Source: a virus
Taxonomy: Duplodnaviria > Caudoviricetes
IMG/VR virus record: IMGVR_UViG_3300028048_002144
Length of the DNA stretch: 64,000 bases
Direction: 5' to 3' (one strand)
Shown here: positions 22,822-61,537 of the stretch, one piece after another
Numbering within the stretch: the first letter of the stretch is position 1
Layout: the number at the start of each line of letters is the position of its first letter
The notes under the pieces: generated by a model
Seen by the model: the letters and a program-made list of their open reading frames with translations, nothing else
Databases searched by the model: none
Told to the model about the DNA's origin: nothing
Position numbers and translations under genes: made by a program

Positions 22822-23823
22822 TTATCTATCGTCTCCGATATCAAAATCGTCCATAGAATCCGAGATATCTTTTTCCTTTTTGATATTCGGTTCTGGCTTT
22901 TTGTAACATATATCTCCACGTTCTAAATGTATTTCTAAAGCGTGATCCAAAATACGTTCTTTTCTTTCTTGTATCATTGTCTTATAAAAATTCTTACGAG
23001 TATCTGATATGATAGGTGTCTCATCAATGATTTTATTGATTTTATCCATATCAATATTTGGAACGATTTTCGCAATTGCTCTTACACAATTAATATCATC
23101 ACTTGAATTAAGCATCTCGTGATAAGTGTATTTTTCTGCATGCTTAATGTCATCTGTTTTTAATAGTGCTGCTTTAGGAAAATCGTACATTCTTCTATCG
23201 ATTTCTTCCCTGCTACTTAGAATTTTTTCAAATGCCTTTTCAGCCAATCCAGGATATAAAGAACTACCACAATCATAAACAGGTGCTAAACGAATTGTTC
23301 GTTCTTGTTCATTAACAAGATATCCCCAGTTCCCCTTATGGCGATCAAAATTGCCAATCAAAGCATCTGCAACAAATGTATCCCAATACCTAGCTATCGA
23401 TTCATCTCTAATTACGGATAATAGAGATCGATCTATGGTTCCATATATTTGATTGTATGTTGGTATGCGACCAATCTCGTTTTTTCTATATACAGTACGC
23501 ATAAACCAATCGAACTCCTGAAGCTTTTCACCTGGTTGTACAAAGTCTTTACATGCAACAACCGGTTCATCCTCATACACACCTAATAAAGTATCGTGTG
23601 TTGGTAATCCCAAAGATCCTACTATATGGCTACCAATGTATTCTGAGAATACGCTGTTTGAGGTGCTTGTTGTCAAATCATTAATCTTTTGTTTTTCATC
23701 GGCAAATTTAAGCATATAATGTTCGCCATTATAAATGATTGATTTCTTAGAATCTGAACCACCATAATCACGCAAACCTTGTTGTGCATATGTAAAATCA
23801 ATGATTTGTTCCATATATACCAC
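22822..23823 (-). CDS. HipA/CtkA-family Ser/Thr kinase
   Basis: YGGSDSK P-loop, YMLKF, SEYIGS, DALIGNFDRHKGNWG, LAPVYDCGSSL. Confidence 0.88.
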   Translation of the reverse strand: MVYMEQIIDFTYAQQGLRDYGGSDSKKSIIYNGEHYMLKFADEKQKINDLTTSTSNSVFSEYIGSHIVGSLGLPTHDTLLGVYEDEPVVACKDFVQPGEKLQEFDWFMRTVYRKNEIGRIPTYNQIYGTIDRSLLSVIRDESIARYWDTFVADALIGNFDRHKGNWGYLVNEQERTIRLAPVYDCGSSLYPGLAEKAFEKILSSREEIDRRMYDFPKAALLKTDDIKHAEKYTYHEMLNSSDDINCVRAIAKIVPNIDMDKINKIIDETPIISDTRKNFYKTMIQERKERILDHALEIHLERGDICYKKPEPNIKKEKDISDSMDDFDIGDDR

Positions 23824-25370: not shown

Positions 25371-25455
25371 GGAGCGTTGCAGGGAATTGAACCCTAAACT
25401 AGTATTTTCCTTCGGCTCAGAACCGCTGTGCTATCCGTTACACCAAACAACGCTC
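25371..25455 (-). tRNA. Atypical tRNA-like RNA, possible CTG (Gln) anticodon
   Basis: 8-bp acceptor GAGCGTTG/CAACGCTC, D arm GTGT-AACGGATA-GCAC, weak CGG-TTCTGAG-CCG arm, extended central region, GGTTCAATTCC. Confidence 0.6.
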
Positions 25456-25552
25456 ATATAGGTAATTTAGGCATTTTGCCAGGGTTTTATGTTGCCAGAT
25501 GCCTCCATCTTAGCGCAATCTTAAAACCACAACCTATTTACCCACATTTTAA

Positions 25553-25636
25553 CGCAGTATCCAGGACTCGAACCTGGAAACCATTTCTGGATGCTTGATT
25601 AGTAGTCAAGTGCTGTACCAATTGAGCCAATACTGC
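25553..25636 (-). tRNA. tRNA-Ser(ACT), A34 anticodon
   Basis: GCAGTAT/ATACTGC, G73, CTTGA-CTACTAA-TCAAG, V-arm CCA-GAAA-TGG. Confidence 0.88.
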
Positions 25637-25803
25637 ATAATTAATGCAGCTCCTCTTGTCTCGAACCTTTACAGATAGGAAAGTTAGCTATTCTTTCGTT
25701 CGTCTGTTTTCCCCAGATCAAATATGCTGGTCTGTCAGGGGACTCAAGGATACTGCTTTAACTAGGTCGTAATGCCTAAAATACGAGGTCACAATGCCCC
25801 AAG

Positions 25804-26823: not shown

Positions 26824-27109
26824 AAGTCCCTCGTGTCTGCCAGTTCCACCATAGATGCATATTTGTCTACTTAAAGAACCATTAGAAATGTAGACTTTAT
26901 TCTTTTTAATATAAGGATTTATGTTAATCGTACTACCCTATATTTGGAACCTGGTCAAAAATAAATAATAGATCAAAATAATAATAATATTGGTTAGTTA
27001 ACCTTCGTCTCTAATTCTGTTTGTAAATCTTCTTAAACCCATATCATAAGTCTTCCTTTCTGTAGCCTATTTTTTATTAATAAAATGAGTTTAATGCTTC
27101 ATTTTTTAA

Positions 27110-27181
27110 CAGCCCATACTGGATTCGAACCAGTGCATCAGGGAGTCAAATTCCCCTGCCTTACCGCTTGGCTAATGAGCT
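27110..27181 (-). tRNA. tRNA-Gln(TTG)
   Basis: AGCCAAGCGGTAAGGC D arm, GGGGA-ATTTGAC-TCCCT, G73. Confidence 0.93.
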
Positions 27182-27354
27182 AGATTGTGGGGTTTATCAA
27201 ACCCCACATGTAAAGATTGAGTTATCTCAAAAAAATAATGAGATAAAGGGTAGGTAGGATTTCTACCATGAAAGAAAGTATAAAATCAACATTGAGATAT
27301 CAAAAAGTATCAAAAATATATCTCGAACTATAGTGAAATGGATACTTTTTATAG

Positions 27355-27428
27355 CGGATTCGCCAGGACTCGAACCTGGGACATCATGATTAACAGTCAT
27401 GCGTTCTAACCGACTGAACTACGAATCC
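27355..27428 (-). tRNA. tRNA-Asn(GTT)
   Basis: Canonical cloverleaf, CATGA-CTGTTAA-TCATG. Confidence 0.95.
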
Positions 27429-27613
27429 ATACAGGAAACATCACTTTGATAAATGACGTTTCCAGGACATCCTTCTACAACATGGTAGACGATTATTCGA
27501 GGATTTTGATACCGCAGTTCCACAACTGCGTACAACAAACAGAAAGGAAGGTGACGTTACGTGAAGTGCGACCCCTATCTGTCTATTGCATTAAATTGTA
27601 AGAGACAGAGTGT

Positions 27614-28221
27614 TACATAAACACTCTATAAGAATAACTGCCGAACTCGTTTTACTAACTTCGCTCTATTCTTAATAGCACCACTATATTCGATCACATG
27701 GAAGATACATGCGAACCTAAATTGTACGGGTTTAGGCTATGTACCCTGGCAAGCCATGAAAGGACTGATACCTTTAACTTTCACCACCATTCGCATTAAA
27801 ATAACAGATCCTTATAAATCTTCTGTTTTTAAGATTTTAATGCAAGCATTAGGCTACTCGTACAGACTTCTATTCTTATTGGTAAGAATTTCTTCTTACA
27901 TCTATGCTTTACCTACTTATTTGATTATTCCAACTGCAGTATCCCTTGTTATCACACGCAGGGCTTACAGGGTTCCCTACCTATTTCTAGTGGGCTTATT
28001 ATCGCAGGTGATAGTTTGTCTTATCTTTAGCTTCGTCTATCAAGATATGCCATAACCAACGTTTGAGAGGTTCCTCTCTTTTATCTCTATTATTACTAAT
28101 AAAGAAGTGGGCTCTCACATACACTATCGCATATGCTTATCCTTTGATTGCATTATGCCCTAGCAGAGTTGGCGACTCTTCTGCACTAGGATGGCAATTA
28201 TTCTTATAGAATGTTTATGTA
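27614..28221 (-). ncRNA. Large structured ncRNA, ROOL-like (~608 nt)
   Basis: 29-bp terminal helix whose two mismatches are both G.U on the minus strand; many internal stems; no credible ORF; inside a tRNA array; family assigned from size and context only. Confidence 0.7.
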
Positions 28222-28256
28222 TTTTTCAATGTGCATATTAAGCTATTAAAAGCTTA

Positions 28257-28336
28257 GGGGCACCTAGAGAGTCGAACTCTAACCGGTGTTTTGTCTTTCA
28301 GGACCGCTGATGTGCTACCGTTACACTAAAATGCCC
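28257..28336 (-). ncRNA. Atypical tRNA-like RNA (possible 8/4 fold) with no canonical anticodon loop
   Basis: GGGCATTT/AGGTGCCC, TA, GTGT-AACGGTA-GCAC, AGAG-TTCGACT-CTCT; central part resembles 25371-25455. Confidence 0.65.
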
Positions 28337-28463
28337 ATACTCAATGTTCTATTTAATGTGGGAACAAAGAAGCCACAGGGTAAAAGAAATGAATGAATTA
28401 ACAATCCAAGAAATCTTTGATATGAAGTCTTGAAATGATGCTGCCGACAATAACGACAGCAAG

Positions 28464-28537
28464 TGGACCATGTTGGACTCGAACCAACGACAGCTCGCTT
28501 ATGAGGCGAGTGGTCTAACCAACTGACCTAATGGTCC
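28464..28537 (-). tRNA. tRNA(CAT), probably Ile2 (lysidine type)
   Basis: GGACCAT/ATGGTCC acceptor as in Firmicute tRNA-Ile2; CTCGC-CTCATAA-GCGAG. Confidence 0.85.
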
Positions 28538-28665
28538 ATGCGAGAGACCAAAAATAAACAAGAGAAAGGAGACTGGTCTCTCTAAAACTATGAAAAAAAT
28601 ATTGATTTATTAAAGCAGAAAGCCCTATGCTCATATAAAACTTACGATAAGACCTTCTGCCTTAA

Positions 28666-28747
28666 TGACCCTGATGGGACTCGAACCCACATGAGCTACG
28701 CTCGCATGATTAAAAGTCATGTGCCATACCAATTAGGCGACAGAGTC
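28666..28747 (-). tRNA. tRNA with TTT (Lys) anticodon and long variable arm
   Basis: GACTCTG/CAGGGTC, A73, CATGA-CTTTTAA-TCATG, V-arm GAGC-GTA-GCTC. Confidence 0.88.
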
Positions 28748-28831
28748 ATAGTGCAGATATTCTCTGCACTAAAAACGTATTTTGAAAGGAGTATATGCAA
28801 CAGATGATTTTACTTTATCTATCTTGTTGAC

Positions 28832-28852
28832 ATATTTAATATGACAGATATA
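28832..28852 (-). promoter_or_regulatory. TCTGTCATATT promoter-like motif heading the tRNA/ncRNA array (member of a ~27-copy family)
   Basis: Same motif lies upstream of most transcription units in the window, in gene orientation. Confidence 0.65.
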
Positions 28853-28883
28853 CTCCCTTTTCTTCATTTTTGTTATGATTTTT

Positions 28884-29234
28884 TTAAAAGAAATTAAAAA
28901 TTAAATATATAAGACCAATGGACGCAGTAATTACGCCTGCTAGTTTAAGTAATTCCTTTGATATTCTGAATAAATCTTCAAAAAAGCATCGAGTAACGCT
29001 TTTCTTATATTTATATATACCCGTATATTTATGATCCTTTACAAAACTAGGTTCATAGAAGTAAAAATATCGTCTATTTCTTACTCTGGTAAGCCTAGGA
29101 TTACTAGAAAATGGATATTGTGTTCCGAGTTTTAATTCGCCCAGATCTTTATCTTCTCTTATCCATTCAATTTTGTTTTTGCCTTCTACAAATTCTATTG
29201 GCCTTATGTTCTCTATATTTGCTTCGTATCTCAT
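28884..29234 (-). CDS. Hypothetical protein with C-terminal TM
   Basis: 116-aa ORF with RBS and promoter motif. Confidence 0.6.
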   Translation of the reverse strand: MRYEANIENIRPIEFVEGKNKIEWIREDKDLGELKLGTQYPFSSNPRLTRVRNRRYFYFYEPSFVKDHKYTGIYKYKKSVTRCFFEDLFRISKELLKLAGVITASIGLIYLIFNFF

Positions 29235-32040: not shown

Positions 32041-33267
32041 ATGGATAAGAAAAATATTAAACCTTTTAAGCAGGAAAATTTATTAAAGTCAAATTTCTTC
32101 ATTGGCATGAAGTATAAATCAAAGCCTTTGGAAGATAAAATCGTCTTTTTAAGTATGCTTGCAATTCAGAAAAATGAATTTGAAGAAAAAGAAGATGGTC
32201 TTTATGTGAAGTTACGTGCTTCTGAGATTAAGAAATCACTTAATATTAAAAGTGGCCATTTTTACACTAACTTAAAAAGTGCAGCAGCTGCTCTTACTGC
32301 GACTAATTATGGTTACGTAGATGATAACTCTGAGCAATTCGTTTTTATTACTATTATCAATAAAGCAGAATACAAGGACGGGGAATTAATTCTTAGATTC
32401 CCGAAAGAGCTTAAAAATGAATTAGTTGGAGTTAGAAGAAAATTTACTAGTTTGCCTAAAGAGTCAGTTATGTCTCTTAATAAATCTTATACATATCCTT
32501 TATACCAATTGCTTAAAAGCCAGTGCTATTATCCAGCTACATATAACGGCCCTAAAGAAAACGTTTTCGCTGTAGAAATCGGTTTGTCAGAGCTTAAGTT
32601 AGATATGGGTGTCGTTAATTCTAACCTAAAATCTGTTCGAGACGTTTTATCCTTTAGTAAAGGTAGTCCTACTGATTATGATAAAGCAGTAGACAAGTCT
32701 CCAGAACAGTTATATAGGCGCTGGGGAGATTTTAATAAAAGATGTCTTAAACCGGCTATAGAAGAAATTAATGAAAAGACTGATATTTATGTAGAATATA
32801 CTAAAATTACTAGCGGTTATGGTGGTAAAGTTAAAGGTGTTGATTTTACTGTTTGGCTTAATGGAGCAGAAAAACAATACATAGATAATAAAAAACGTGT
32901 TGTTTTAGATGAAGATGAAACTATTCAGATCAAGATGGATGATAGCGATAAGTTTATGTTCCATGTTAATGTTATGAATTTGTTTGCTGATTATGCAAAG
33001 TTACCTTATGAGGATATTGTTTCTATCTCAGAAGAAGCAGAATATAATATGGAGAAAATTAACCAGGCTAAAAAGGCTTTACAAGCTAGTAATTCTGTTA
33101 TTGATAATATAACTGGTTGGATTATAACTGCGATCCGTGATAGTTACACAGCTAATAAGGTTAAACAAAATAAAACCACTTTCAATAGTTTTTCTGAAAG
33201 AGAAGATATGTCTGAAAAAGATATTTTAGAATTGAACGGAAATATATTCGAAAATAATAAAGAATAA
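32041..33267 (+). CDS. Plasmid replication initiator (Rep_3/RepB family)
   Basis: KSN..YK, FTSL..SYTYPLYQLLKS, Y..WGDFNKRCLKPAIEEINEKTD..V.Y..GGKV..V.F. Confidence 0.9.
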   Translation: MDKKNIKPFKQENLLKSNFFIGMKYKSKPLEDKIVFLSMLAIQKNEFEEKEDGLYVKLRASEIKKSLNIKSGHFYTNLKSAAAALTATNYGYVDDNSEQFVFITIINKAEYKDGELILRFPKELKNELVGVRRKFTSLPKESVMSLNKSYTYPLYQLLKSQCYYPATYNGPKENVFAVEIGLSELKLDMGVVNSNLKSVRDVLSFSKGSPTDYDKAVDKSPEQLYRRWGDFNKRCLKPAIEEINEKTDIYVEYTKITSGYGGKVKGVDFTVWLNGAEKQYIDNKKRVVLDEDETIQIKMDDSDKFMFHVNVMNLFADYAKLPYEDIVSISEEAEYNMEKINQAKKALQASNSVIDNITGWIITAIRDSYTANKVKQNKTTFNSFSEREDMSEKDILELNGNIFENNKE

Positions 33268-35209: not shown

Positions 35210-38200
35210 TTAGAAATAACTAACTGATGAACTTTGATTAACTAATGGTGCTGATTCATCGAATCCATCAATATCAGCGATTGTATCTGGATTTAAGCTA
35301 TAGTATTTTGTACTATCAATTTCAGCCAACTCTTTATCCATACAAAGTCCTAATGTTTTAATTGTAGAATCTTTTCTATTCTCATCTTTAGAGAATGGCT
35401 CTTTATTATTAGGAGCCATATTTTGACGCATAGCTACAGACTCGTTTATATATGTTGATGAACGTATATTAGTTAATGTACTTTGCAAGTTTAGTAAATC
35501 GTTAGGAGTAGCTTTATTTGCTGCCTGAGCATCAATTGCTTCGCCTAATACATCTCTAGCATTATTATCTGGTTTTAATTTTTTGCTTTCAGCGATCTTT
35601 CTACTATTCGCTTCAGCTTCAATCTCTGCTATTGATCTTTTTACAGATAATGTCTTTTTCTTTAGGATATAAATATTTTTACTGTTTCCATCTGCAGTAT
35701 ATTTATAGAATGGCATCATTTCATATCGTACTTTACGTGCTTTAAATGGTGCTATACCTCTCAAGAAGAAGATACACTGATCATTATCCATTGTTCTTAA
35801 TTCATCTGGAGTCATTAATGCTCTCTTAGATGCACTATCTGAATAACTTACTGAACCCTTACCATTTTTAGATATAGAAGTATTACGTTTTATAATAGTT
35901 GTTTCACCTAAATACTTAGATATATATTCGAGCGTTTCTGGATCATTAGAACCTAAGAATAATAATGAATCACAGTTACCTATAATTGTACCGTAGTTAT
36001 CTTTATAGATATTCTTAATCTGTCCAATATTCTGAAGAATAATAGTAGCTGAGATTTCATACTTTCTCATTGTTGCTAGTTTTTGCTCAAAGTATGGGAT
36101 TCGACCTACGTTAGCAAACTCGTCTAACAGGAATCTAACGTGGAATGGCAACCATTTACCAGCTCGTGTAATCTTACAATTTTGCATTGCTAGTATCTTT
36201 GATTTAGCAACTTTTTCTTCACTATATGTTTTAAATAATTCAAAATGTTCATTTAACACATTTTCATCCGTCAGATCGTATTTAGAGGTAATATCTACTT
36301 CTTCCTTTGGTGGCTCCTCTTCAACCTTTTTCTTATTATTCCCTAAATTAGAGATAGCACTTAAAATGCCCTTCTTAGCTTTAAGTTCTTCTTCCTTTTC
36401 ATCATTTTTAACTTCTTTTTCTGGTTCTTCAGGAACAACTTTTGGTACGTAAATCTCGTATTTTGAACCTCTCTGAATCATTACCGCATGTTTTGCTCTC
36501 TTTACAAAGTATTCAGCTTCTTTTTTAGCTTCATCGTTTTCTTCGCCAATACTATCGTCTGGTCTTGTTGCTTCGTCTTCGGCATCATCATTTACTCTAT
36601 CTTCACCAGTAAGAACTTTATATTCTTTCTTACCTTGTACTATGTTATCTTCATCAATGAATATTCCATTATCTTCATCAAGGGTTAATCCGTCATTTTG
36701 CTGTCGTTTTTCATCTTCTTTAATCTTAGTCTCCTTCTTGAAAATGCTTATTATTTTATCAAGAATAGACTTTTTCTTTTCTTTTGTTTCTTCCTCAGCT
36801 TCTGTTTCCTTTTCGCCCTGGCCGATAACTTTACCATTCTTGATTACGAAAGCCTTTGATATTTCATTAGTTTCAACAACTTCTTCTTCAACATGTTTAT
36901 TCTTTATAATCTTTATACGTTCTCCAACACTGTCTTCTATCATATAATTTCCCTGACATAAAGCATTAGCCTGGAAATACAGTGTCTGGAACAGCTGAGT
37001 ATAAAGAATAGCGGCCAAGAAGTTAAATGAATCATGTTCCTGTGGCAAAATTGCAAATAATGCAGTCTTTTCCATTCCGACTTGTTCAAGGTTAATTGTA
37101 TCTTCAGTAAGAAGATCTGCAATCTCTTTTGAATCGAGCGTAGAAAGTCTTGATAATGCAGAAATAAGAATACTCTGTAATGTTTTTCCAGCAGCTGACT
37201 TAAACTTATGATACTGTCGTATAGAAATATCTACACCATAAGGTTCATGGTATTTATAAAGATTAGCTTGTCCTCTTGGAGGTTTCCCTAATTGGAAATT
37301 ACCGTTTTCGTCAAAATACCATCCATCAGACTCAATAGCCTGGAAGTATTTATCAGTTTTATTCATTTCAGTTGTTGAGGAGTCTTCACTAACTTTACAA
37401 TCTTCCATTAACTGAACTACAGACAATAGGTTCTGTTTCAAACCTAATTCTGGTCCATGTAACCATAACAAATAAATAAAGGACTGTATCATCAACTTCT
37501 GTGCTTTTTCCCAGAAGTCATCTCCACCTTTGGCATTTGCATCTTTAGTATTTTCAAGGATAACGTCTGTCAGAATAAGTACATCAGTATCAGTATGAAT
37601 ATATCTCATAGGATTAAACTTATCTGATTTTTCCATCTCATATAAGTTAAAGACTTTAATCTTATATCCCATACTCTCTAGCAAATGTCCGGTATCTTGT
37701 AATAATTCTCCCGATGGATCGGAACAAACAAAAGATGTATTTAGCGGCATTAACGCAAGATTAGGCTTAACAAAGAATCTTGATTTACCTGTACCAGCAC
37801 CACCAATTACAACGACATTATTGTTTCTTCTTGTCTGTCTAGTATCCATTGACATATAAACAGTATCTGAGAAAATCATATCCTTTGTTGGTTTTTCAAG
37901 TGAATATGCTCCAGCAGAATATGTATAATGACTATTCCATACTGTTAGTTTTGGATCTTTTTCAGTATACCAGGCTGCAGTACCATCTTCTGTACCTTTT
38001 TTTGCATGTCCATTCTTCCACATTTCTTGTAAATACGCATATATCATTACCATTGATATTGAACTAAGTATTACAAGCAAATTTGTACCTAGATTAACTG
38101 GCATAGCTGGTAAGGAAAATGGATTGGCTGATATTCCTTCCATTGTTTTACCGAGTATAGTGAACGTAGTATCTATTGGCGAAGCCAATGCTTGATATGC

Positions 38201-38302
38201 GCTATACTGTACGCCTACATATATGCCTACTGCATATATTATTCCCCACATTATTATAAATTGGAGATTCAGGCTTTTTTCTGTACCTTTTTTTAAGTCC
38301 AT
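35210..38302 (-). CDS. virD4: Type IV coupling protein VirD4/TraG
   Basis: TM N-terminus, GGAGTGKSR, DPSGEL, DDFWE, LLDEFANVG, LQNIGQ, RALMTPDEL. Confidence 0.93.
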   Translation of the reverse strand: MDLKKGTEKSLNLQFIIMWGIIYAVGIYVGVQYSAYQALASPIDTTFTILGKTMEGISANPFSLPAMPVNLGTNLLVILSSISMVMIYAYLQEMWKNGHAKKGTEDGTAAWYTEKDPKLTVWNSHYTYSAGAYSLEKPTKDMIFSDTVYMSMDTRQTRRNNNVVVIGGAGTGKSRFFVKPNLALMPLNTSFVCSDPSGELLQDTGHLLESMGYKIKVFNLYEMEKSDKFNPMRYIHTDTDVLILTDVILENTKDANAKGGDDFWEKAQKLMIQSFIYLLWLHGPELGLKQNLLSVVQLMEDCKVSEDSSTTEMNKTDKYFQAIESDGWYFDENGNFQLGKPPRGQANLYKYHEPYGVDISIRQYHKFKSAAGKTLQSILISALSRLSTLDSKEIADLLTEDTINLEQVGMEKTALFAILPQEHDSFNFLAAILYTQLFQTLYFQANALCQGNYMIEDSVGERIKIIKNKHVEEEVVETNEISKAFVIKNGKVIGQGEKETEAEEETKEKKKSILDKIISIFKKETKIKEDEKRQQNDGLTLDEDNGIFIDEDNIVQGKKEYKVLTGEDRVNDDAEDEATRPDDSIGEENDEAKKEAEYFVKRAKHAVMIQRGSKYEIYVPKVVPEEPEKEVKNDEKEEELKAKKGILSAISNLGNNKKKVEEEPPKEEVDITSKYDLTDENVLNEHFELFKTYSEEKVAKSKILAMQNCKITRAGKWLPFHVRFLLDEFANVGRIPYFEQKLATMRKYEISATIILQNIGQIKNIYKDNYGTIIGNCDSLLFLGSNDPETLEYISKYLGETTIIKRNTSISKNGKGSVSYSDSASKRALMTPDELRTMDNDQCIFFLRGIAPFKARKVRYEMMPFYKYTADGNSKNIYILKKKTLSVKRSIAEIEAEANSRKIAESKKLKPDNNARDVLGEAIDAQAANKATPNDLLNLQSTLTNIRSSTYINESVAMRQNMAPNNKEPFSKDENRKDSTIKTLGLCMDKELAEIDSTKYYSLNPDTIADIDGFDESAPLVNQSSSVSYF

Positions 38303-48299: not shown

Positions 48300-50732
48300 T
48301 TAGAATAAACTCTTTCTATCAGTTTTTTGTGTATTATGCTTTTTCTTATCATCTGGTTTAGTTGTAAATAACTTATACAACAGTAGATTCTGTGGGAATT
48401 CATTTACAAATGGTATAGTTACACCATCTTTTCTAATAAGTCCCTGCCCAAATGGTGATTCATCAATAAATGCTAACTGAGATTCTGATAAGTTATAATG
48501 GTCTCTCAAAATCTCAATACCAGTAGGCTTCTGCGACAGAATCATCATGAATGATGAGTTATCAAGTACACTAAATCCAGCTTCACTATTAAAGTCTACA
48601 ATACTCTGTGTAATAGCTGTTGGAACGCCATCCCACTTTCTAGCTCTTCTCCAGATTGTAGATAAGTATTCAGCAGCTGTTGGAGTCTTTAATGCGTGAT
48701 GTGCCTCATCAATATAAATACGTGTTCTCTTTCCTTTCGCAAAGTTAGCAATAATCGTATTCCAGATGTGGTCAAGGCATACCATGTATCCAGTTTCCTT
48801 TAGTCCAGATCCTAATGACTTGATATTGTATACTGTAAATCTGTTATTTACCTCAATATTTGTCTTATGAGCAAATATATCATGAGTTGTAGTATAAAGT
48901 TCAAGCTGTGCAGCCAGGTCAGGCGCATATGGGTTATTTTCACTTCTTATGGCATCAATGAAATCTATAAGTGTTGGTGAGAACTCTGGCTGACAGGTAA
49001 TACTCTTGTCCTGCAGTAATCTCATTTGTTCAAGATATGGTCTATACATCTTTACTACTGCACTAGAAATCAAACTCTGTTCTGGAAGTGTCAGTGATCT
49101 TGTTTTACCTATCATAGTATCCACTAGTGATAAGATATAATCTGATTTTACCTTTACAGGATCCAGATTAGTCTGATTATCTTCATCACCGTACTGTAAG
49201 TCCATATCGAATGGGTTCAAGAATAATGTTGAACCTTGTGCAAGTTTAATTTCTGCTCCATTAAATGCTTTTATTAATTCTGAATACTCTCCTTCAGGAT
49301 CAATAATGATAATATCATCATCTGTATTTAAGAATACACTTGCAATCTCTTGCTTTGCAGCCATTGATTTACCAGAACCAGGAGTACCAACGATAATTCC
49401 GTTAGGGTTATTTCCTTTCGTTCTATCATAGATAAGCATATTCTTTGTATTAGCATTTAATCCGTAGTAGATACCACCTTCATCCATAAGTTCTACAGAA
49501 TTAAATGGAATAAACAATGCTACGTTATCAGATGGCATTGTAAAAGGTGTGATTCCATCATCTCTACACAATGGAAGAACAGTCTTAAATCCGTCTTCCT
49601 GTCTAAATGATAATCTATCTGCCTTAATGATGAATGTATTTAATTCGGTAAGCAATGTTTGCTCATTCATATTTAATTCATCTAATGTATCAGCAGTAAT
49701 TAAGAATGTGCAACTGAATAAGAACAGCTTCTGATCTCCAGACTGTACTTCTTCGATTAATTCATTAGCTTGCTCATGTGCATACTTTAATTTTGGAGAA
49801 ATCAAATCTCCACTATATCCAGCTTTAAATGCCTGTTTTTCTGCATCAATTACGTCACCACGGATTCCAGTAGCTTTATCATTCAGCTTTTTGATAGCTT
49901 TATCCTGAGATAATGGAATAATGTTATATGATGCAACTACATTTATTGGCAGTGAAGCTATTGAACTTACAACATCAGTATTTAAAAGGCTAGGATAATT
50001 CTTTACGAATATTGTTCTCGCATATAAATTACCCATTCTAAAGTCATTGATTGAGTTGAAATAGAATCCAGATGGAGCAATGAAATCTTTAGTTGAGTCG
50101 CCACGTTTAGTTAATGTAGCGATATCTATTCTCTCGTCACCCTTGATCTCTTTATTAGTAATCATTTCCTGGATAGTCGTTAATCTATCTTCAATAGTCT
50201 GTGTTTTTACAATAGGCTTAGATGTTTTTGCAAGTCTAGTAAGCTGCTTCTTAATTTCAGAATCATTTCGACCTAACTGGATTCTTGCTTCTTCTACATC
50301 TACAGCTTCTACACCTATTACTAAGTATTTATCTGTTATGATATTATTTCTTCCAGATTTACTCTGTATTTCGAGAAGTTTATTATAATCTTCTCTATAT
50401 TCATTGTATGAATCACTTTTCATTCTGATCTTAACTTTTTGAATAGCTGTTTCGTTATCTATTGTTTTATTATGGATAACTAACTGTATTCTAGTATTAG
50501 ATGAAAACGAATTTAAAAATCTAACATAATTGTCGAAGATTTTTTCTTGTTCAACATCAGATGCAGCTGAAAAATTTATATCATCCAGCTTATATGCCTT
50601 AGTAAAGAACTGTGGTTTTGATTCGATAATACCATCATCATATATGCTGTAATATGGTATAGTCTCTTGTGCTGTTCTTGGCTTTGGTTCTTTCGCCTTT
50701 TTAGGGCTTTTTTTGATATTAACAAAACTCAT
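48300..50732 (-). CDS. virB4: VirB4-like conjugal transfer ATPase
   Basis: GTPGSGKS, IIDPEGEY, NPFD, YIDEAH, RARKW..TAITQ. Confidence 0.93.
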   Translation of the reverse strand: MSFVNIKKSPKKAKEPKPRTAQETIPYYSIYDDGIIESKPQFFTKAYKLDDINFSAASDVEQEKIFDNYVRFLNSFSSNTRIQLVIHNKTIDNETAIQKVKIRMKSDSYNEYREDYNKLLEIQSKSGRNNIITDKYLVIGVEAVDVEEARIQLGRNDSEIKKQLTRLAKTSKPIVKTQTIEDRLTTIQEMITNKEIKGDERIDIATLTKRGDSTKDFIAPSGFYFNSINDFRMGNLYARTIFVKNYPSLLNTDVVSSIASLPINVVASYNIIPLSQDKAIKKLNDKATGIRGDVIDAEKQAFKAGYSGDLISPKLKYAHEQANELIEEVQSGDQKLFLFSCTFLITADTLDELNMNEQTLLTELNTFIIKADRLSFRQEDGFKTVLPLCRDDGITPFTMPSDNVALFIPFNSVELMDEGGIYYGLNANTKNMLIYDRTKGNNPNGIIVGTPGSGKSMAAKQEIASVFLNTDDDIIIIDPEGEYSELIKAFNGAEIKLAQGSTLFLNPFDMDLQYGDEDNQTNLDPVKVKSDYILSLVDTMIGKTRSLTLPEQSLISSAVVKMYRPYLEQMRLLQDKSITCQPEFSPTLIDFIDAIRSENNPYAPDLAAQLELYTTTHDIFAHKTNIEVNNRFTVYNIKSLGSGLKETGYMVCLDHIWNTIIANFAKGKRTRIYIDEAHHALKTPTAAEYLSTIWRRARKWDGVPTAITQSIVDFNSEAGFSVLDNSSFMMILSQKPTGIEILRDHYNLSESQLAFIDESPFGQGLIRKDGVTIPFVNEFPQNLLLYKLFTTKPDDKKKHNTQKTDRKSLF

Positions 50733-58576: not shown

Positions 58577-60061
58577 TTACTTCTGGCTTTTATATGCCAT
58601 AATCTTTTCCTCTATTGAATTTTCATCTTGTATTAGTTCTGGTTCAAGGGCAGCCATTTTTATATTTTCATTATTATTCTCATCTGAATTATTCTTGTTT
58701 GGTTCAGTATCATTAGCCTTTACAACATCAGTAGCTTTTAAATTAAGCTTATCTCCCCAAATAGCTGCAGCTTTTTCTTTGTCCATTTTATCTTTCTTTG
58801 TTTCTTTATAGCCCTGCTCTATTAAGTTTTCTTTTACAAGCTCATTTTCAAATGGATTTGTAATCTGGGCATTCTTGAATTTCTTCTTTATCTTTGAAGG
58901 AATTACTGTTCGATAGAATTCTCCATCATCTAATAACAGATAACATTTATTTTCCCCTTCATCATTTGAGAAGAATCCGATCTGATCGATATATCGTCTC
59001 TGTCCACCTTTTCCATCTGGTTTCATAGATACCATGATCGCTACATCTATGAATTCATATACGTTATTCTTGAATCGCTTCTCTACAATACTATCATCAA
59101 TCATGTTTACCATTCGTTCTGGTACTTTTCTTACATCATCTGTATGTAGTGTAGTGATTCCGTTTACACCAGTAGTAAATCCCTGCATAAGATACTTAAC
59201 TTCGTTTGCTCTTGTTTCAGCGATCATTATCCAGTCTGGATTCTGCTTTAGTGATGCTACAATTGCGTCTGAATATGTAATATCTTTATTAGTCTTCATT
59301 TCAATTACATCTGCAGTTGGATTCAAGGCTTTATAATGCCATTCAAGTACATCTTCAATAGTGATTACTCTTTCGAGATCAGGGATATACTTTGAAATAA
59401 ATTTTGCAAGCTCTGTTTTTCCGGCTCCAGGGTTTCCACAAATAATTACATTCATATGTGCTTTTACGAAATTAGCAAGCAAACATAATACTGGTTCGCT
59501 TACATAAGCTTCTTCAAGAGCTTTACCTTCTTTGATTCGTTCTACTACAGGTGTCTTTCTGATACAGATAGATAATCCTGTCTGAGCAATAGATGGATGC
59601 ACAGATGAAAAACGAAGATCTTTTGTTTCAGCTTCCAAGAATGGATTCTTCTGATTGAATTCCTGGGACTGGATATTTGCTACGTTCTGCGCAAGCTTTG
59701 TCATAGCTTCGATTGTTAATTTACTCTTATCGAAGTATTCTGGTGTATGTCCATCTTCGATTTCTTTTCCATTTGCATCGTATTTCGCTAACATATCCTC
59801 TCCGTCTTTAGCTTTCCAATGACGGTTATAGATATCTGTTAATACTAATTCTCCATTGTTATAGTCTACGTCAGTTATATCTGTATTCTGTACGTAACCT
59901 TTAATGGATTCGAAATCCTCTATAAACAACTGAAATCCAGCATGTGTTTCTGATGCCTGGACTCCTTCTTTCTGTTCGATCTTTTCTTTTATTGTGAATG
60001 CGTCATCTGAAAAAACGTTTTTATTATCAATCGTTTCTTCGGGTATTTTTTTATTGAACAT
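58577..60061 (-). CDS. cpaF: TadA/CpaF (VirB11-like) ATPase
   Basis: ICIRK, GNPGAGKT, ITIEDVLE, QNPDWIMIAETR, TTLH. Confidence 0.88.
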   Translation of the reverse strand: MFNKKIPEETIDNKNVFSDDAFTIKEKIEQKEGVQASETHAGFQLFIEDFESIKGYVQNTDITDVDYNNGELVLTDIYNRHWKAKDGEDMLAKYDANGKEIEDGHTPEYFDKSKLTIEAMTKLAQNVANIQSQEFNQKNPFLEAETKDLRFSSVHPSIAQTGLSICIRKTPVVERIKEGKALEEAYVSEPVLCLLANFVKAHMNVIICGNPGAGKTELAKFISKYIPDLERVITIEDVLEWHYKALNPTADVIEMKTNKDITYSDAIVASLKQNPDWIMIAETRANEVKYLMQGFTTGVNGITTLHTDDVRKVPERMVNMIDDSIVEKRFKNNVYEFIDVAIMVSMKPDGKGGQRRYIDQIGFFSNDEGENKCYLLLDDGEFYRTVIPSKIKKKFKNAQITNPFENELVKENLIEQGYKETKKDKMDKEKAAAIWGDKLNLKATDVVKANDTEPNKNNSDENNNENIKMAALEPELIQDENSIEEKIMAYKSQK

Positions 60062-60620: not shown

Positions 60621-61169
60621 TTACACATACGAATTCTGTAAAAACTCTATTGTTTTTTCGTGGTAATTAGCATTCTCCGTCTTACTCATTAAATCGAACG
60701 CTTCTTCTCTAGTTAATGCGTCTCGATATGGTCTTGACGATGTTAATGCTTCATACACATCTATCGTATGCAGGATCTTTGCATATTCTAGTATCTTTTC
60801 CGTTTTCTTAAATTCAACCGGCATTAATGTTTCAGGATTTTCAGTATGATGATACAGTATGATGTATCGAACTTCTTCACTTATGTTCGTTTCATTTAAT
60901 AGTTCAAAACTAAAATATGCATGGTAGTTAACTATCTTTCTTTCAAGATTAGTTAATCGTCCAGGTTTATTCAGAATGCTTTCTGATAGGTAATATTTTC
61001 CTACGTCATGGAATAATGCTGCGGTAGATAAAACCCCTTCATCTAAATTTAGGGTTTGTTCTAAAACCTTCGCTATGTTATACATTCTGATACTGTGTCT
61101 TCGGGTAATTAAGGGTAATCTCTCTACGAGTTCACTTTCCTTATCTCCCCACTGGTCAAAATTTTCCAT
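60621..61169 (-). CDS. HD-GYP-family protein (putative c-di-GMP phosphodiesterase)
   Basis: TRRHS, FHDVGK, ILNKPGRL, YHH, IDVYEALTSSRPYR; canonical GYP not evident. Confidence 0.85.
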   Translation of the reverse strand: MENFDQWGDKESELVERLPLITRRHSIRMYNIAKVLEQTLNLDEGVLSTAALFHDVGKYYLSESILNKPGRLTNLERKIVNYHAYFSFELLNETNISEEVRYIILYHHTENPETLMPVEFKKTEKILEYAKILHTIDVYEALTSSRPYRDALTREEAFDLMSKTENANYHEKTIEFLQNSYV

Positions 61170-61537
61170 CTATTTCTTAGCAGGATACCTCGATTTTTAT
61201 AAGTCAAGAATCCCCTACGTCTCCTTTCTGTAAATTACTGATATGTTTATTGCTATAAGCCGGTACATACCAACCGTAATGCAGCCTTCGCCAATGTTAT
61301 TATGAGGTTTTTGTAAGCAACACTGTTCCTACCCATCAGAACTGTTTAATCACTTACCTTAGAGCTACAGACTAGGCTGTACATCCGTAGGTAACTATAC
61401 ATGACAATGAAACTGCTAATGTTTCATTGTATATTCTCATATAACGTAGTCAGTTAAGACTTAGGCTAGTCAATTAAGGCTTTTACAAGCCTCCACTTCA
61501 ATGATTATGAAATAATCGTAAGTGGTGGGTTATTGAC
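61170..61537 (-). mobile_element. Non-autonomous IscB-type element with near full-length omegaRNA (HEARO) and no iscB ORF
   Basis: GTCAATAACCCACCAC..GGCTTG..AAGCC..TTGACTAGCCTAAG..ACTACGTT..GTTACC..GCTCTAAGG..TTAAACAG..AACAGTG..AACATTGGCGAAG..AGAAAGGAG; followed by ATGGA. Confidence 0.9.

Follow-up and report, generated by a model that had tools for sequence, protein, structure and literature searches.

What is the 608-nt stretch, closed by a long helix, that lies within a tRNA operon of this mobile element: an RNA of a known family, an RNA of a new class, a DNA element bounded by inverted repeats or a protein-coding gene? The first-pass annotation proposed a ROOL-like ornate non-coding RNA at this locus and named a cmscan search as a check. 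This search has been run on the whole stretch of DNA that was analysed (64 kb of a 205-kb element; hereafter, the window). Positions are those of the window. Features of the RNA and of the tRNA array are given on the minus strand.

The stretch at 28221..27614 (-) is a full-length, divergent ROOL gene and thus belongs to a known family (ROOL: Rfam RF03087; Weinberg et al. 2017, PMC5737381). The Rfam 15 scan of the whole 64-kb window finds RF03087 at 28214..27624 (-), on the predicted strand, with 205.4 bits and an E value of 6e-45. The match runs from end to end (model positions 1-574 of 574). The gathering score of RF03087 is 99.1 bits; the copy scores about twice that. The gene is delimited here as 28221..27614 (-), i.e. 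608 nt with the entire 29-bp closing helix. GOLLD (RF02032) gives no match at its gathering score in the window and none at E up to 1 in 27000-29000. As the covariance model of ROOL is matched over its full length, the RNA is a member of the family, neither merely ROOL-like nor the founder of a new class.

The consensus structure line of RF03087 was transferred from the alignment to window coordinates. Of its 157 pairs, 149 can be scored, both partners being present in the copy; 123 of these 149 are canonical. The helix with the worst score (P17/P18 region) was misregistered by cmscan; read directly, it is GGGUACAU/AUGUAUCU, with 8 bp. The conserved core blocks are found in the alignment of the window copy: GUGAAAGUU, GUAnnAGUAGCC, AGUAGCC, GAAUG and a GNRA loop. 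A variable linker is located at the position typical of the family, between AGUAGCC and GAAUG.

P1, the closing helix, was found both by folding and by an inverted-repeat search. Its 5′ arm (UACAUAAACAUUCUAUAAGAAUAAUUGCC) is at 28193..28221 and its 3′ arm at 27614..27642; they form 29 bp, including two U.G pairs. Positions and letters of both 29-nt arms (27614-27642 and 28193-28221) are exactly those quoted by the first-pass annotation. At the DNA level, the arms are the top inverted repeat of the 64-kb window (27 of 29 positions Watson-Crick; 550 nt between the arms). In the fold of the minus-strand RNA, all 29 positions of P1 are paired (MFE -177.5 kcal/mol; z -9.3 versus shuffles). In that of the plus-strand RNA, P1 is interrupted at two positions (-151.6 kcal/mol; z -4.9). 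P1 being intact only in the minus-strand fold, the two deviations are U.G pairs on the minus strand only; the claim that both favour an RNA helix on this strand is borne out by the folds of both strands. The portion of P1 that is modelled in Rfam is fully paired (16/16).

The five internal stems listed at first pass are all present, either on ROOL consensus helices or, for GCAUUAAAAU/AUUUUAAUGC, in the variable linker. The following stems correspond to ROOL helices: CCUAG/CUAGG (28190..28186 with 28163..28159), AGAG(U)/(A)CUCU (28179..28176 with 28168..28165), GAGAG/CUCUC (28078..28074 with 28069..28065) and CCUAAA/UUUAGG (27737..27731 with 27721..27714). P2 is a two-tier hairpin (28159..28190); its loop carries CGCC, the 5′ partner of contact B1 (see below).

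How far has this copy diverged? The comparison set includes at least 80 IMG/VR ROOL loci, retrieved with one exact pattern of the conserved core, and thus samples the family with a bias. Among the loci compared, twelve were checked; all 12 are full-length ROOLs, with 197-358 bits, and the window copy (205 bits) is near the bottom of this sampled range. Its identity does not exceed 48% with any of 77 other ROOLs (MAFFT alignment, among the matches listed). In blastn searches against the 80 listed IMG/VR loci, a core of about 40 nt alone aligns. Six further ROOL loci from metagenomes were obtained with a sub-clade pattern; in blastn, they have the conserved core alone in common with the window copy. 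The sub-clade-specific pattern has no match in viral contigs. A DNA search for close relatives gave tRNA matches only in the phage collection and no match in the plasmid collection. The overall dimensions are those of the family: the window copy has 608 nt versus about 560-670 nt in the others sampled, and its uninterrupted P1 has 29 bp versus about 19-36 bp (both among the matches listed).

Does the divergent copy retain the sites by which ROOL RNAs assemble? Eight copies of the ROOL env-120 form a hollow cage with D4 symmetry (PDB 9MDS; Kretsch et al. 2025, PMC12286853). Cages have been solved by cryo-EM for the ROOLs of env-120, E. faecalis, Firmicutes CAG:227 and L. salivarius (PMC12286853; PMC12990946; PMC12515178). 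The E. faecalis ROOL is an octamer and the L. salivarius ROOL a hexamer (tabulated in PMC12990946). The residues of env-120 that bridge subunits are tabulated in PMC12286853 (Suppl. Table 2). From this published table, they were mapped onto the window copy by motif and position; env-120 itself is absent from the listed ROOL loci and from the searched viral contigs.

B1 of env-120 maps to CGCC in loop L2 (28174..28171) and to GGUG, right after the conserved GAAU (27788..27785); the two sites can form 3-4 bp. Their pairs in the window copy are C-G, G.U, C-G and C-G. The B1 sites covary: 3.39 of 4 pairs form versus 2.91 +/- 0.10 after shuffling, and 0 of 5000 shuffles reach this value (28 distinct letter combinations in 77 other ROOLs, among the matches listed; the shuffles ignore kinship). 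The window copy has one nucleotide fewer at GGUG, so that the final G is common to the adjacent helix and the fourth B1 pair competes with it. B1 of the window copy may therefore have 3 bp, the number found in the E. faecalis ROOL (PMC12990946).

B4 would associate UGAU (27954..27951), in the apical loop of the hairpin 27963..27943, with AUCA in a junction (27925..27922). The combination UGAU x AUCA is unique to the window copy among the 78 ROOLs compared (among the matches listed); the letters found elsewhere are UGGC/GCCA, UGGU/ACCA, UGAC/GUCA or UAGC/GCUA. A column-based statistic on the MAFFT alignment was not significant (1.89 versus 1.68). The partner segment is misregistered in this alignment, and a register-free test was used instead: the mean longest duplex is 4.48 versus 3.30 +/- 0.12, with 0 of 1000 shuffles as high (77 other ROOLs, among the matches listed; the shuffles ignore kinship).

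A GAAA tetraloop that caps GUAAGAA/UUCUUAC (27886..27895) corresponds in position to the GNRA loop of the A-minor bridge B2 of env-120. The candidate for B6 is loop L18, CCCGUACAA (27722..27730), with the self-complementary GUAC (27727..27724). In the solved cages, L18 is the symmetric kissing loop B6 that joins the two half-shells (PMC12286853; PMC12990946). L18 of the window copy has 9 nt with GUAC; its relatives mostly have 5-nt loops, UAGCU/UCGCU, or CGACGG. The apical stem of P7, the junction that precedes P7 and the conserved ACAAUAGACG block are altered in the window copy. The apical P7 stem determines whether a hexamer or an octamer is formed (PMC12990946), so the stoichiometry of the window copy cannot be predicted from this altered stem. 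As the contact pairings are retained by means of its own compensatory letters, the window ROOL most likely forms a homo-oligomeric cage.

The variable linker is predicted to fold as a 51-nt hairpin, GCAUUAAAAU...AUUUUAAUGC (27793..27843; fold z -3.0). The linkers of the solved ROOLs are disordered and occupy the cage interior (PMC12286853). The covarying pairs 458-461:578-581 of env-120 correspond to a pseudoknot at the linker flank (PMC12286853, Suppl. Table 3). By sequence comparison, its strands in the window copy are UGCG (27792..27795) and CGCA, in the internal loop after P18 (27710..27713). All four pairs can form, and this combination is two compensatory changes apart from the majority UCUG x CAGA. 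In the 77 other ROOLs (among the matches listed; kinship ignored), 3.9 of 4 pairs form versus 2.72 +/- 0.25 after shuffling. UGCG overlaps the final 3 nt of the linker hairpin, so that its outer 3 bp compete with the pseudoknot and both structures cannot form fully. Either the hairpin would have to fray, or the two pairings could act as a switch. The 3′ trailer of ROOL was also compared with the linker: its first 24 nt (27586-27609) show 79% complementarity to the hairpin's 5′ arm (27822-27845). The perfect core of this complement (10 nt) is at chance level, and many AT-rich pairs of the window are equally good; the complement may be the relic of a duplication, or else an alternative pairing.

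Which other readings do these data leave? A new class of ornate RNA that merely resembles ROOL would account for the low identity to other ROOLs (at most 48%, among the matches listed) and for the blastn alignments with the ROOL loci, restricted to the conserved core of about 40 nt. Its probability is negligible: the covariance model is matched end to end above a curated threshold, and the family-specific blocks (GUGAAAGUU, AGUAGCC, GAAUG, GNRA), the linker position and the pseudoknot are all present. The 29-bp terminal inverted repeats could suggest a remnant of a MITE or of another inverted-repeat transposon rather than an RNA gene, and the 99-aa ORF at 27756-28055 (plus strand) a protein-coding gene. 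Neither is credible. The ORF is antisense to the RNA and has no Pfam match. The interior between the repeats matches the covariance model of a structured RNA (E 6e-45), and both mismatches of the arms are G.U pairs on one strand only. The first-pass annotation had named additional copies as the mark of a MITE; the arms are single-copy, no third arm being found in the 64-kb window at up to 3 mismatches (chance expectation 0). No direct repeats that flank the P1 arms were seen on reading the sequence. The MITE was rejected on these grounds: arms single-copy in 64 kb and a helix with strand-specific G.U pairs.

A decaying ROOL relic, in which homology is still recognisable and function lost, is very improbable, although several features point that way: the low score (205 versus 197-358 bits), the identity of at most 48% to any relative sampled (among the matches listed) and the altered P7 and ACAAUAGACG blocks. 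Decay would destroy long-range and inter-subunit pairings, whereas every such pairing that was tested is kept by compensatory changes. P1 has 29 bp with all positions paired, and 574 of 574 model positions are covered. Taken as support rather than proof, the retained pairings speak for selection on the folding and self-association of the copy, and against a relic.

How would this ROOL be expressed? The array, read along the minus strand, runs as follows: promoter-like motif, tRNA-Lys, tRNA-Met, tRNA look-alike, ROOL, 185-nt spacer, tRNA-Asn, tRNA-Gln. The candidate promoter, proposed by motif (AATATGAC on the plus strand), is at 28838..28845 in minus orientation. The motif AATATGAM is found 38 times in the window versus 17 expected, mostly immediately 5′ of minus-strand genes, which is consistent with an element-specific promoter. 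The copy at 28838..28845 is the sole minus-oriented one between 22123 and 29273 and is thus the likely start of the tRNA/ROOL operon. No minus-strand terminator-like site was found between 28838 and 25801. With a single promoter motif upstream and no such site, the simplest reading is that ROOL would be co-transcribed with the tRNAs and released by tRNA processing.

Several other features of the array can be mentioned. Each half of the 185-nt spacer (27429-27613, minus strand) folds into strong hairpins (z -3.3 and -4.6). The spacer has no Rfam family match and no U-tract and is thus not a terminator; it could be a further small structured RNA or a processing element. Two tRNAs called by ARAGORN depart from what is usual in the bacterial type: a tRNA-Ser whose anticodon is ACU (wobble A; 25552-25637, minus strand) and a tRNA-Gln(CUG) of 83 nt (25371-25453, minus strand). 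A protein with a HipA-like kinase domain (Pfam HipA_C, E 1e-11) is encoded inside the array (22822-23823, minus strand).

Are the neighbouring tRNAs partners of the RNA, as was first suggested? ROOL had been described as flanked by aberrant tRNAs, which stands for the upstream unit and not for the downstream one. Upstream, at a distance of 36 nt, is a tRNA look-alike (28335..28258; RF00005, 32.2 bits). Its acceptor, D and T arms are normal, and its anticodon loop has 6 nt, without readable anticodon. It is missed by ARAGORN with default settings and called at a lowered threshold (-ps80) as tRNA-?(ga). Downstream, at a distance of 185 nt, is a canonical tRNA-Asn(GUU) (27428..27354; 74.2 bits). 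Among the matches listed, 36 of 80 IMG/VR loci have a tRNA at 500 nt or less from ROOL, co-oriented in 35 of these 36; at several listed loci, tRNAs abut ROOL within 0-30 nt. A ROOL inside a co-oriented tRNA array is the ordinary context of the family. No tRNA is found in the stretch examined at 36 of the 80 IMG/VR ROOL loci (among the matches listed), so tRNAs are not obligatory partners of ROOL.

Odd tRNA-like genes, with 2-nt or 4-nt 'anticodons' (ARAGORN; 6-nt or 8-nt loops), are found near ROOL at twelve IMG/VR loci. At one further locus, the odd tRNA is directly at the 5′ end of ROOL (ARAGORN). In a clade of about 10 large viral contigs, the odd tRNAs are about 450-690 nt away from ROOL and, wherever the side could be resolved, 3′ of it.

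The proposed partnership can be stated as follows: ROOL and non-decoding tRNA look-alikes would form a functional unit, in which the cage captures, displays or protects the look-alikes (decoys or a store). The look-alike with a 6-nt anticodon loop, 36 nt upstream, and the odd tRNAs (2-nt 'anticodons') found by ARAGORN near ROOL in several IMG/VR lineages are compatible with such a unit. It has been speculated that cages hold tRNAs, and a tRNA precursor fused to the 3′ end of ROOL leaves the cage undisturbed (PMC12286853; PMC12515178). It is nevertheless unlikely. The downstream tRNA-Asn is normal, 36 of 80 listed ROOL loci have no tRNA, and the complementarity of the linker to the array is at chance (best duplex with the rest of the tRNA array 10 nt, equalled by 72 of 100 shuffled linkers). 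Besides, the odd tRNAs were counted at ROOL loci only. With one aberrant flank, an ordinary array layout and chance complementarity, the partner idea is weakly supported, and the claim that aberrant tRNAs are partners of this RNA is not upheld. A more specific version, distinctly unlikely, is that the look-alike is a cage cargo or decoy (e.g. against host defences that target tRNAs) and that private contact codes (UGAU/AUCA, UGCG/CGCA, GUAC) prevent the mixing of co-resident cages. An operon rich in odd tRNAs is nonetheless a reasonable place for probing the idea of a tRNA cargo.

Taken jointly, a divergent ROOL gene, its transcription in the tRNA operon, processing and cage assembly are very probably the best explanation of the locus. 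The RNA would be transcribed within the minus-strand tRNA operon from the motif near 28838-28845. RNase P and RNase Z would cut at the tRNA look-alike (36 nt upstream) and at tRNA-Asn (185 nt downstream) and thus free ROOL, whose ends would then be trimmed back to the 29-bp P1. The RNA would fold into the flat multi-junction ROOL monomer. Copies would assemble into a closed homo-oligomeric, RNA-only cage, most likely an octamer, like those of the env-120 and E. faecalis ROOLs. Within a half-shell, subunits would touch through B1 (CGCC x GGUG), B4 (UGAU x AUCA) and an A-minor contact of the GAAA loop, and the two half-shells would be linked through the loop with the self-complementary GUAC. As a best guess, held weakly, the cage may be a compartment or a scaffold for the translation-related tRNA cargo of the element.

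Which type of element carries the gene? The window encodes a Rep3-type initiator (32041-33267), a VirD4/TraG coupling protein (35210-38302), a VirB4-like ATPase (48300-50732) and a VirB11-like ATPase (58577-60061). Other genes of the window encode RecJ, a methylase, a GGDEF protein and a piece of a PHP-domain polymerase. Among the window ORFs tested, none was recognised as a phage structural gene. From this gene content (Rep3, VirD4, VirB4, VirB11-like), the carrier is assigned to conjugative-plasmid-like elements. The closest plasmid relatives of the coupling protein are from Bacillota (Clostridium, Ruminococcus albus, Enterococcus), with 35-41% identity; the host is probably a member of this phylum. 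As the carrier is conjugative-plasmid-like rather than a phage, any function proposed for ROOL cannot depend on phage lysis or packaging. The window also carries a full-length HEARO RNA (IscB/IsrB omega-type; 128.6 bits; 61276-61537, minus strand). The ORF just downstream (60621-61169) encodes an HD-domain protein and not an IscB/IsrB nuclease, so this guide-type RNA appears to lack the gene that normally accompanies it.

Few natural RNAs are known to build a closed, protein-free cage; ROOL is one, and the window copy adds no new principle to this. Its contact letters are all changed and yet complementary, which supports, from a natural variant, the contacts that cryo-EM had revealed. The copy also lends itself to asking whether the cages of different elements are orthogonal.

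Compared with known systems, GOLLD (RF02032) resembles the window RNA in that it is large and ornate, is carried by mobile elements, often within tRNA arrays, and forms RNA-only cages (PMC12286853); it differs from it in sequence, secondary structure and stoichiometry (GOLLD: 14-mer). With the ROOL family, the window copy shares the complete covariance-model match, the core blocks, the linker position, the long P1 and the GNRA loop. It also shares the complementarity kept at B1, B4 and the linker-flank pseudoknot, the palindromic L18 and the co-oriented tRNA neighbours on a mobile element. It differs from other ROOLs by its own letters at B4 (UGAU/AUCA), the pseudoknot (UGCG/CGCA) and L18, by a distance from the B1 site to the GUGAAAG block that is shorter by one nucleotide, by a changed P7 and preceding junction and by a linker that forms a 51-nt hairpin. 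It is carried by a conjugative-plasmid-like element rather than by a phage or a prophage; ROOLs on megaplasmids are already known from L. salivarius (PMC12990946).
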